Shown piece after piece: positions 16,543 through 17,810 of a stretch of DNA of 54,957 nt (positions within the stretch are counted from its first letter, which is position 1; each line of letters begins with the position of its first letter). A model generated the notes under the pieces. The model was given only the letters and a program-made list of their open reading frames with translations. It made no database searches and was not told the DNA's origin. A program made the position numbers and the translations under genes. Origin of the DNA: a virus (Duplodnaviria; Caudoviricetes); the IMG/VR virus record IMGVR_UViG_3300028586_000752, positions 1 through 54,957 of that record; one strand, 5' to 3'.

Positions 16543-17490
16543 TCAAAAACGAAGCTTCATAGGGGAATCTTGCTGTTTTGAAGGATCGTGAAATATTTCA
16601 AGAGATTTCATCCGCATTTCATCCGCATTTCCATCGTGTTTCATGCGCCCCGGTTCGGTGCCTTCAAAAGGCTCGTCGGCAGCAGGCTTTGAGCGGGAAG
16701 TCGGCAGCGATTCGGGCACCGACGCCTCGACCAGGGCGGCATTTTCCAACGCCTCTTCGCTGCCGTCGCTCGTGTTCGTCAGCGACTCCCATAGATTACG
16801 GAACCATAGATACTGTTTGCGGTTGGGGTTGCGCTGCCGTGGCTCAGCGCCGATACGAGCCCAGCCCATGAGCTTTCCGACTTTCTCGTAGAAGCGATCG
16901 AGGAAGGCTTTCATCGCCGCTTTGTATTTTTCGCGCCGGTTCGGGCCGCGGTCGTCGGCGTGCTTGCCCGGGTGGTTGGCGCCGATCCCAAGCTTGCCGC
17001 CGCTCTCCGGCACGTTGTAAGGCAGCAGCATGAAGTGAACGTGGGGGAAGCGTTCGTCGATGTGGGCAACCACGGAATGAACGCGCTCGCCGAACTCTTC
17101 GCGAAGAAACGTGATCGTGTATTCGCAAAATTCGCCAAAAGCCCGCCACTCCTGAGGGTTTTCGAGCATGTCTTTGGTTTCCGTCGGATAGCTTGCGACA
17201 CCAGCCACCAGCAGTTGGGCATCTTTCCGCATTCTTTTGGGGCTCTGGCTATCAAATTCGGCGACTTTTTGGCGAATCAGGGGGATGGCACCGGAAGGGG
17301 GGCCAAAGGGGCAAAAAAGGGGTATTTCCGCGAGGGGCTCGGAAACGTGCGGAATCGCCGAGGGCCGGCGGGTCATCTCGTTGATGACGCCGGAGATGGT
17401 GCGACGGCCCTTCGACGACTTGAAGCCGTAACTTTCCAAGCGGATGAAGCCGACCTTCTGCGGCGGCTTGCGAGCGGTGGTGGTGGGCAT
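16543..17490 (-). CDS. mob: Mob_Pre (MOBV-type) relaxase / plasmid recombination protein
   Basis: VAHIDERFPHVH (HxDExxPHxH), RKDAQLLVAGVASYP, FLREEFGERVHSVV, N-terminal GFIRLESY; AAGGAG SD then ATG 17490. Confidence 0.85.
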   Translation of the reverse strand: MPTTTARKPPQKVGFIRLESYGFKSSKGRRTISGVINEMTRRPSAIPHVSEPLAEIPLFCPFGPPSGAIPLIRQKVAEFDSQSPKRMRKDAQLLVAGVASYPTETKDMLENPQEWRAFGEFCEYTITFLREEFGERVHSVVAHIDERFPHVHFMLLPYNVPESGGKLGIGANHPGKHADDRGPNRREKYKAAMKAFLDRFYEKVGKLMGWARIGAEPRQRNPNRKQYLWFRNLWESLTNTSDGSEEALENAALVEASVPESLPTSRSKPAADEPFEGTEPGRMKHDGNADEMRMKSLEIFHDPSKQQDSPMKLRF

Positions 17491-17674
17491 GGCGGTCTCC
17501 TTGGCGGCTTGCTGCTCTCTCCGCTTCATCATCTCGCGCTGCGGCGAGCGGCGAAAGCGCGGGGGCCGCTTCCCCGGCGAGCGGCGGCCGCGTTTTTTTT
17601 GATTCCGCCTTCGTCGGTTCGTCCTGCTCCAGCCCGCCCTTGGCTTTGCTCGTGTGCGCGTGAGGCCGACTCTC

Positions 17675-17810
17675 TTAACAATCTCTAAGATCAAAAGCTT
17701 TAAAGATAAAACCTTAAGACTAAAAACAAAAACCGGGCGTGCCTGCAGGCGCACGTGGCGACGCGCCACGCCTGCGCCTGCGTGTGTGCGCTCAGGCGCA
17801 CACACGTAAT
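17675..17810. promoter_or_regulatory. Candidate oriT/origin: A-rich repeats plus two adjacent inverted repeats
   Basis: AAGA(T/C)..AAAA repeats ~17687-17732; IR1 17745-17781 (gcaggcgca-cgtggcg / cgccacg-cc-tgcgcctgc); IR2 17781-17806 (cgtgtgtgcgc-tcag-gcgcacacacg); upstream of mob. Confidence 0.5.

Follow-up and report, generated by a model that had tools for sequence, protein, structure and literature searches.

Why would a temperate tailed phage carry, as the first gene of an early operon, a relative of the relaxases found on small mobilizable plasmids? The question is raised by the IMG/VR virus record IMGVR_UViG_3300028586_000752, a stretch of 54,957 nucleotides (hereafter the window), in which a mob-like gene encoding the protein P0001 lies on the minus strand next to a putative replication gene. 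We found P0001 to be a new member of a known but uncharacterized clade of MOBV-like proteins, and its residence in a phage early operon to be new as well. The protein is probably an active site-specific nickase. As to what the nicking would serve, we tentatively favor the reading that P0001 is a cis-acting nicking relaxase that would make the excised phage circle mobilizable, a possibility that is weighed below against three others.

The mob-like gene and its product

The gene at the center of the analysis is as follows:

16543–17490, minus strand: mob-like gene encoding P0001 (open reading frame [ORF] with AAGGAG and ATG; Mob_Pre, 27.8 bits; predicted local distance difference test score [pLDDT] of the model, 84.4; structural match to MobM, Z 14.6)

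The original ORF call spanned 16543–17823 on the minus strand, and the earlier note on this DNA had given the range as 16543–17810. We assigned the start to the ATG at 17490, because AAGGAG lies directly 5′ of it and the closest homologues, P0002 and P0003, share this start; the first 111 codons of the long ORF make up an Arg-rich extension that has no counterpart in the homologues. The gene reported earlier is real, but its coding part covers only 16543–17490 (315 amino acids), and the stretch 17491–17810 is noncoding DNA upstream of it. The frame is intact, the ribosome-binding site is strong, and the codon-position GC resembles that of the neighboring genes.

The product had been described as a Mob_Pre protein with an intact HxDExxPHxH motif, and we found the motif at residues 143–152 (residues 142–152 read A-H143-I-D145-E146-R-F-P149-H150-V-H152). 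The residues of the catalytic core, H143, D145, E146, H150, H152 and R41, are all there. In the Pfam search that the note had proposed, Mob_Pre (PF01076) passed its threshold narrowly, with 27.8 bits at a cut-off of 25.5 and an alignment to profile positions 65–141 of 196 only. This marginal match was the sole Pfam match of P0001, and a PHROG search returned no match for the protein. In sequence comparisons with the PDB, MobM was the only meaningful match, with an E-value of 0.021 for the single sequence and of 3.5e-5 for the family profile.

Predicted structure

A first AlphaFold2 model, computed from five sequences, was too poor for use (pLDDT 54.1), and the model analyzed here was computed from an alignment of 105 sequences. 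It reached a pLDDT of 84.4, with residues 10–250 mostly above 90. The relaxase domain occupies approximately residues 12–225, and the C-terminal 90 residues are modeled as one helix followed by a low-confidence tail. When the model was compared with the PDB using Foldseek, the best seven matches were all to the MobM relaxase domain (E 5.2e-6 to 1.3e-4), followed by MobA of R1162 and NES. With VIA-align, model residues 12–221 and residues 2–185 of the MobM chain gave a Z of 14.6 and a root mean square deviation of 3.5 Å over 174 aligned residues; the Z was 10.6 for NES, 10.3 for MobA and 8–9 for TraI/TrwC. On the Foldseek and VIA-align scores, the modeled P0001 is assigned to the HUH relaxase fold, with MobM as its nearest solved relative.

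A clade with glutamate in motif I

A word-based search retrieved only four relatives, one at 33% identity and three (P0002–P0004) at 66–70%; the latter lie on contigs of 45–79 kb, and all three keep the catalytic residues. In the profile search, the number of cluster representatives was 1,892 at E ≤ 1e-3 and fell to 1,253 at E ≤ 1e-10 and to 276 at E ≤ 1e-30; E-values went down to 1e-79 for nonidentical clade members. In the 105-sequence family alignment (A2), E38, R41, H143, E146 and H152 are invariant, and at least 98 sequences retain H48, S100, P102, D145, H150, H173 and G175 (at least 103 in the case of D145 and H150). The clade signature (F15, E38, R41, H48, S100, P102, H143, D145, E146, H150, H152, H173 and G175) is complete in P0001. 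Mob_Pre was matched by 79 of the 105 family members and the MobA/VirD2 relaxase family by 21.

The residue at position 38 sets the clade apart. Motif I of P0001 is E38-M-T-R41, that is, ExxR, and there is no HxxR. As a canonical set we took pT181 Pre and 10 annotated MobV proteins, chosen for taxonomic spread from 40 of 2,295 plasmid records; HxxR is present in all 11. We aligned the first 235 positions of the family to these proteins using hhalign with global or low-threshold settings. The alignment spans the whole domain (probability 99.1–99.6, E 1e-19 to 1e-22) and pairs Glu38 with the canonical His and R41 with the canonical Arg; the aligned motif I segments are TISGVINEMTRR in P0001 and NTTGIQKHVQRE in pT181. 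For the N-terminal 70 residues there was no local alignment to MobM or pT181 Pre with hhalign or hidden Markov models, the local matches covering the motif III half only.

According to two reports (PMC5863519, PMC13436267), MobM cleaves via a histidine and not a tyrosine, and removing H22 abolished its relaxase activity; the second also gives H24 and R27 of the pBBR1-derived MobV as the equivalent positions. Because a Glu sits at this catalytic His of MobM and MobV, one cannot take for granted that P0001 works by the mechanism known from MOBV relaxases. By its sequences, the clade is a distinct MOBV-like branch whose nucleophile would be other than the canonical His. A candidate is His48, which is near-invariant, lies seven residues after Arg41 and has no canonical counterpart, and which may act as the nucleophile. 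The earlier naming of P0001 as a MOBV relaxase thus stands for the relaxase fold of MOBV type and the intact metal-binding motif, but not for motif I, where the His is replaced by Glu, nor for the NCBIfam MobV model, whose cut-off is missed.

We inferred a tree for 35 sequences, 24 from the clade and the 11 canonical MobV proteins, leaving out fragments, duplicates and the unlabeled bulk of A2. The clade was split from the canonical proteins with 100/100 support and long branches, and P0001 was placed inside the clade. P0001–P0004 formed a subclade with 100/100 support and internal branches of 0.08–0.15, the position of which within the clade the tree leaves open.

Relatives on small plasmids and integrated islands

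Using tblastn, P0001 matched 68 of 72,556 plasmid records, all at less than 60% identity and mostly 2.4–7 kb in size. MOB-suite typed 50 of the 68 plasmids as non-mobilizable, 17 as mobilizable and one as conjugative. It types some pHW126-type clade members as MOBV, those of pY47-2 and pHW126 among them, and calls most of their plasmids non-mobilizable. The plasmid-borne clade members show the ExxR...H pattern. The 2.8-kb pIPCEC31_4 has a mob-like gene and a 200-aa helix-turn-helix protein, and in pSTW0522-72-4 and pY47-2 the clade member stands beside a separate replication initiator.

In the pHW126 report (PMC2831885), orf1 is named mob on the same motif evidence, and a putative origin of transfer (oriT) is placed ~100 bp upstream. 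A preprint reports conjugative transfer demonstrated for pIGRK and pIGMS31 and gives the pIGMS31 MobM as HxxR, hence not an ExxR member; judging by the title of PMC8152469, the pIGRK relaxase is of a different kind.

For relatives on chromosomal and metagenomic sequences, we tallied the neighbors at 10 loci, scanning 97 of the 118 ORFs within 6 kb; those left out were 20 short ones (73–109 aa) and one of 293 aa that runs antisense to the mob match. Recurrent neighbors were integrases (two to three ORFs), ParA-like proteins (two to three) and proteins matching Phage_GPA or phrog_91, “nicking at origin of replication” (2 of 97); one small terminase subunit was also found. The 25 commonest neighbor families of these 97 ORFs included none of a transfer apparatus.

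A scan of IMG/VR with a five-sequence alignment (A1) gave 36 pattern matches and 0 relatives, and the window's O-like protein, its RusA and its TerL yielded 0 relatives each when used as queries. A scan with a nine-sequence alignment (A4) found two loci, a 37-residue fragment and an island, L035; apart from the window, L035 alone among the IMG/VR loci found spans the greater part of P0001 (query residues 15–227). The island (6429–11305) has the order integrase, primase and mob, directly follows tail-fiber and repressor genes, and carries an in-frame TAG at codon 76 of its mob gene. It resembles an integrative mobilizable element or a satellite lodged beside or in a prophage. At L014, a locus with a distant mob gene, a 2,081-aa ORF lies upstream; besides P0001, no window protein matched L014 in tblastn. 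As the relatives are MOB modules of small plasmids or integrated islands, a relaxase needing a helper is what one may fairly expect from the family.

Hairpins and box arrays around the gene

If P0001 nicks DNA, its target may lie close to the gene. The following features were found there:

17491–18272: long noncoding gap separating the mob-like gene from the divergent rusA gene (no convincing ORF; 780–940 bp)
17746–17806: two abutting GC-rich hairpins, which could be an oriT-like element or a terminator
17722–17735 and 17816–17829: A-rich 14-nt direct repeats (D13, 93% identity) bracketing the hairpins
17613–17620, minus strand: one occurrence of GAACCGAC (core of the loop in the clade hairpin), 123–130 nt upstream of the ATG
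17943–18027: intergenic cluster of TGAAAT(A/C)TTTC boxes, three of them ~11 bp apart, with the perfect 22-nt palindrome TGAAATCTTTCGAAAGATTTCA
16576–16632: second cluster of the boxes, in inverted orientation, upstream of the O-like gene and within the final 30 codons of the mob-like gene

The region 16400–18600 had no Rfam match at E ≤ 1, and no sigma-70-like promoter was found in 16300–18400. At 17857–17870 on the plus strand, AGGAGAATC followed by ATGTGA makes a strong ribosome-binding site before a start-stop mini-ORF (or a 26-codon GTG ORF).

The two abutting inverted repeats and the A-rich repeats described earlier upstream of the gene are indeed there. The hairpins lie 256–316 nt upstream of the mob start codon; the one at 17781–17806 has an 11-bp stem and a four-nucleotide loop, and the one at 17746–17780 has 15 pairs and a two-nucleotide bulge. 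The 201-nt DNA fold has an energy of −39.9 kcal/mol, compared with −24.05 ± 3.23 for shuffled sequences (z −4.91; 0 of 200 shuffles as stable). On the coding strand, the hairpins are followed by a small alternative stem and then a T-run, CCCGGTTTTTGTTTTT. One terminator-like site was called on the minus strand, at 17755–17738 followed by CCCGGTTTTT; shuffles average 4.1 sites, showing no enrichment. The further proposal that the hairpins are the enzyme's oriT found no support here: nothing ties them to P0001, no sequence is shared with the hairpin of the family, and the T-run is terminator-like.

The family does have a candidate oriT, a hairpin upstream of mob at 5 of 16 loci (L002 [= L010], L009, L012, L018 and pHW126). 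Its stems vary yet stay complementary and thus covary, while the loop GAACCGA is constant, in the arrangement ...TAG(N)GAACCGACTA... The hairpin is found at 1246–1261 in L002, at 33–48 in L009 and at 3289–3304 in L012, and it lies ~80–100 nt upstream of mob in L018 and in pHW126 (L033). The hairpin region of pHW126, ~100 nt upstream of mob, agrees with the putative oriT position given in PMC2831885. The 8-mer GAACCGAC occurs four times in the whole window on both strands, and its copy upstream of the mob-like gene may be due to chance.

The box arrays form a second set of candidate sites. All seven window matches to TGAAATNTTTC fall at 17943–18027 or 16589–16600; their number in the whole window is not above chance (5 of 100 shuffles reach seven), and what stands out is the clustering alone. 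Inside the gene, the boxes code for E-I-F-H, and P0002–P0004 keep E-T-F-H in otherwise divergent tails. The kept E-T/I-F-H peptide suggests, at the level of sequence, that the relatives share this DNA element, and the arrays look like operators or iterons flanking the mob-like gene.

The mob-like gene has an array of these boxes on either side, an arrangement reminiscent of an immunity gene with its operators, which makes a further explanation conceivable. Under this explanation the clade would consist of hydrolytic nucleases or DNA-binding regulators, and the phage protein would be a site-specific nuclease or a repressor-like autoregulator at the arrays. It would accommodate Glu38, found in all 105 family sequences at the position of the His present in 11 of 11 canonical MobV proteins, and it has a parallel in MobM, which represses its own promoter through oriT binding (PMC5863519). 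We nevertheless consider it highly improbable: the metal site is complete and the additional His48 near-invariant, both of which favor catalysis, the HUH core would be superfluous in a pure regulator, and clade members fill the MOB slot of two-module REP+MOB plasmids.

The phage and its replication genes

The genes on either side of the mob-like gene are the following:

15413–16546, minus strand: O-like or replisome-organizer gene (phrog_678, “replication initiation O-like”, E 2.3e-12, residues 267–362, C-terminal)
18273–18983, plus strand: gene of the RusA Holliday-junction resolvase (PF05866, 96.2 bits), first of the rightward operon

IMG/VR lists the record as a provirus, and CheckV puts its completeness at 72%. 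Recognized genes are an integrase at the left end, an HTH_17 protein, RusA, the small (terS) and large (TerL) terminase subunits, portal, major head, head-closure and other virion proteins and, at the right end, a GH19 lysin and a ResIII helicase, so that the right end is phage and not host. This agrees with the tailed prophage of the earlier note; integrase, terS, TerL, portal, major head and lysin belong to one element. The ResIII-type helicase gene (52588–54957, minus strand) runs off the right end of the window, and the provirus call therefore cuts a gene. The terminase genes (terS PHROGs; Terminase_6N/6C) come after rusA, and the mob-like gene is divergent from all three. The RusA domain begins at residue 65, and the real rusA start may be near 18435.

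Most proteins encoded in the leftward block (~10–17.5 kb) matched no family. As noted before, the mob-like gene precedes an initiator-like gene: the O-like gene adjoins it downstream on the same strand, starting either at TTG 16546, which overlaps the mob stop, or at ATG 16348, which has GGAG upstream. For the O-like protein, the Atlas gave DUF1376, Phage_rep_org_N and Lin1244_N as leads only. Elsewhere in the early region, a DUF4942 protein (7350–8132, minus strand; 141.5 bits) and a protein with an LPD29 (large polyvalent protein-associated) domain (8814–9383, plus strand) are possible DNA-modification or anti-defense cargo. The tail region holds a 2,051-aa ORF (37560–43715, plus strand). 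There is no tRNA in the window.

Also in line with the earlier note, no gene of a type IV secretion system or coupling protein was recognized in the window: PF02534, PF10412 and PF03135 had no match there, whereas control genomes matched. With no match for a coupling protein or a VirB4-type ATPase in the window, the element would not be self-transmissible.

We interpret the window as a single temperate tailed phage whose early region is mosaic. One contig of 58,712 nt, with an even depth of 122.5, spans 14000–20000 including the mob–rusA gap, without variants or joints; by its coordinates, it would cover the window and extend ~0.45 kb to the left and ~3.3 kb to the right. A tandem arrangement of an island plus a prophage was considered and found less likely, as the even-depth contig spans the putative junction and as the Acidovorax phage AP1, similar in size, has ~19–25 kb of early genes before terS. 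The sequence was found in one public DNA run only, a leaf-litter metagenome that is probably the source sample; no RNA run was listed. The contig depth could mean that the element was abundant or free of the host chromosome in the sample.

Given this setting, the relaxase-like enzyme could serve the DNA metabolism of the phage, either nicking an origin for rolling-circle (sigma) concatemers or resolving or recombining replication products, with the O-like protein as organizer. HUH nickases of the P2 gpA type are replication initiators in other phages, and Pre acts at RSA sites in recombination and resolution. The gene is the first of the leftward early operon, with the O-like gene directly after it and a possible overlap of stop and start; the O-like protein resembles, as far as the leads go, phage replisome organizers and not plasmid Reps; and no helicase, primase or second initiator was recognized in the leftward operon. 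The two 11-bp-phased TGAAAT box arrays, iteron- or operator-like, flank the gene, and a long stem branch and altered conserved positions with the core kept (given below) would fit a new target and role. Among relatives, the 2 of 97 neighbors matching Phage_GPA or phrog_91 put both kinds of enzyme side by side.

Against such a role, replication is ascribed to another protein in every relative with a readable context, namely Rep on plasmids and a primase or GPA-type protein on islands. The Acidovorax phage AP1, the closest cultured phage by its portal, uses a helicase-primase module and lacks a homologue. Using tblastn, P0001 had 0 matches in 50,697 phage genomes; the function is therefore not an established one in phage replication. 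A role in replication, with rolling-circle co-option named as an alternative in the earlier note, is, in our view, somewhat on the unlikely side, although nearly as likely as mobilization.

The clade's habitat also allows the gene to be a passenger, a piece of an island or plasmid recombined into the early region, maybe active yet with no cognate site on the phage, the hairpins then being an unrelated terminator or regulatory element. Clade members reside on plasmids and islands, the oriT-like hairpin of the clade is absent from the window, and the L035 mob gene (query residues 15–227) is interrupted by its in-frame TAG. Phage early regions are mosaic: in positions 1–23,000 and 40,000–55,655 of AP1, only RusA, the portal and one structural protein matched proteins of the window. 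The frame of the mob-like gene, however, is intact, with a strong ribosome-binding site and neighbor-like codon-position GC, and the catalytic residues are kept across four homologues at 66–70% identity, from different sources and on contigs of 45–511 kb. Retention at this divergence argues for lasting selection, and the C-terminal E-T/I-F-H kept over the DNA boxes would suggest a shared, integrated architecture. A mere passenger thus seems improbable.

Possible mobilization of the phage circle

The reading we favor is that a pHW126-type MOBV (Mob_Pre) enzyme was possibly captured by a temperate tailed phage lineage from a small mobilizable plasmid or island and then kept. On induction, the leftward early operon would be expressed, and the enzyme would bind a cognate site nearby, for which the 780–940-bp gap with its two hairpins and the TGAAAT box arrays are the candidates. 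It would then nick one strand of the excised, supercoiled phage circle. If the cell also harbors a conjugative element whose coupling protein is compatible, the enzyme could pilot the strand into a recipient, a route independent of the phage receptor. The catalytic activity, the target site and mobilization itself are what we infer here, and mobilization follows by analogy from the contexts in which the relatives live.

Several observations weigh against this reading. The first concern the chemistry and the family assignment: at the position of the catalytic His, present in 11 of 11 canonical MobV proteins, all 105 family sequences have Glu, which, going by the alignment, would make a covalent His-DNA adduct like that of MobM impossible at position 38. 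The NCBIfam MobV equivalog model NF041497 scores 44.9 bits on P0001, below its cut-off of 100, and in the open-access literature we found no experiment on any ExxR clade member. The C-terminal region of P0001 is short (~90 aa), the plasmid members read being 426–474 aa in length, and the gene sits in a phage replication module. The stem branch of the P0001–P0004 subclade is long, 1.91 changes per site, and the subclade is altered at the conserved positions Q14G, H17R, G60C, D81S, G84P, W121F, Q197L and R221N. It also carries three two-residue insertions relative to the clade consensus. Together with the retained catalytic core, the altered positions fit an active enzyme whose DNA target, partner or role may have changed.

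The other points against it concern the site. The GAACCGA-loop hairpin of the clade was not found in the window; its absence does not exclude clade membership, because the hairpin is not universal in the clade. The window hairpins have no similarity to that hairpin or to any known or family oriT, and they may be a terminator. The GAACCGAC copy is unstructured, the surrounding 161 nt folding no better than shuffled sequences (z +1.91).

In its fullest form, the favored reading describes a phage lineage with its own relaxase and cis-acting transfer origin, able to exit either as virions or as a single strand through the conjugation pore of a co-resident element, and using a nucleophile or chemistry other than His. 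This combination we regard as rather unlikely.

Significance

Phages and conjugative or mobilizable elements are usually treated as separate routes of gene transfer. A phage with its own relaxase would blur that separation, and it would loosen the tie between receptor specificity and phage host range, as recipients without the receptor would, if this is true, be within reach. In the main texts of the open-access literature we found no description of a tailed phage that encodes a MOBV-type relaxase. Should P0001 act in phage replication instead, it would represent a rolling-circle initiator of a type new to phages.

The clade itself comprises at least 1,253 representatives (E ≤ 1e-10), and the Glu found at the MobM His in 105 of 105 sequences examined raises a question on the chemistry of HUH enzymes. 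It also has implications for the number of small plasmids misclassified as mobilizable or non-mobilizable.

Comparison with known systems

With the canonical MobV (MOBV1) proteins, such as MobM of pMV158, Pre of pT181 and MobV of pBBR1/pBHR1, P0001 shares the HUH fold, motif III and the Arg of motif I; inverted repeats precede the gene, and the profile-profile alignment covers the whole domain. Unlike in these proteins, the position of MobM H22 and MobV H24 is Glu38 in P0001 and the clade, and the carrier is a phage of ~58 kb and not a small plasmid. The hairpins in the window are GC-rich and lie 256–316 nt upstream of the gene, whereas the oriT of pMV158 is AT-rich and overlaps the mobM promoters.

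The Mob of the Rahnella plasmid pHW126 and the MOB modules of pIPCEC31_4, pSTW0522-72-4 and pY47-2 belong to the same clade as P0001, with ~30% identity over residues 15–240, the shared ExxR...H signature and shared invariant residues. They differ in that the plasmid proteins are 426–474 aa long and are encoded on plasmids of 2.7–6 kb beside a separate Rep. The GAACCGA-loop hairpin upstream of mob in pHW126 and pIPCEC31_4 is absent from the window, and, unlike the plasmid members, the window's subclade forms a separate long branch.

The P2 gpA-type initiators (Phage_GPA, PF05840) offer a parallel for a function in replication, being phage HUH nickases in a replication module. Unlike them, P0001 matches only Mob_Pre in Pfam and no PHROG.

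Among phages, the Acidovorax phage AP1 has a portal 46.5% identical to that of the window at a similar map position, an integrase, a RusA homologue at 37% identity and a genome of similar size (55.7 kb). It differs in having a rightward helicase-primase module and an Xre repressor and no mob-like gene, and its TerL does not match that of the window at E ≤ 1e-5.

Integrative mobilizable elements, represented by the L035 island, resemble the window element in combining a clade member with an integrase and a replication gene but no transfer apparatus. Whereas the island only abuts tail-fiber genes, the window element has a full virion module of terminase, portal, head, tail and lysin.

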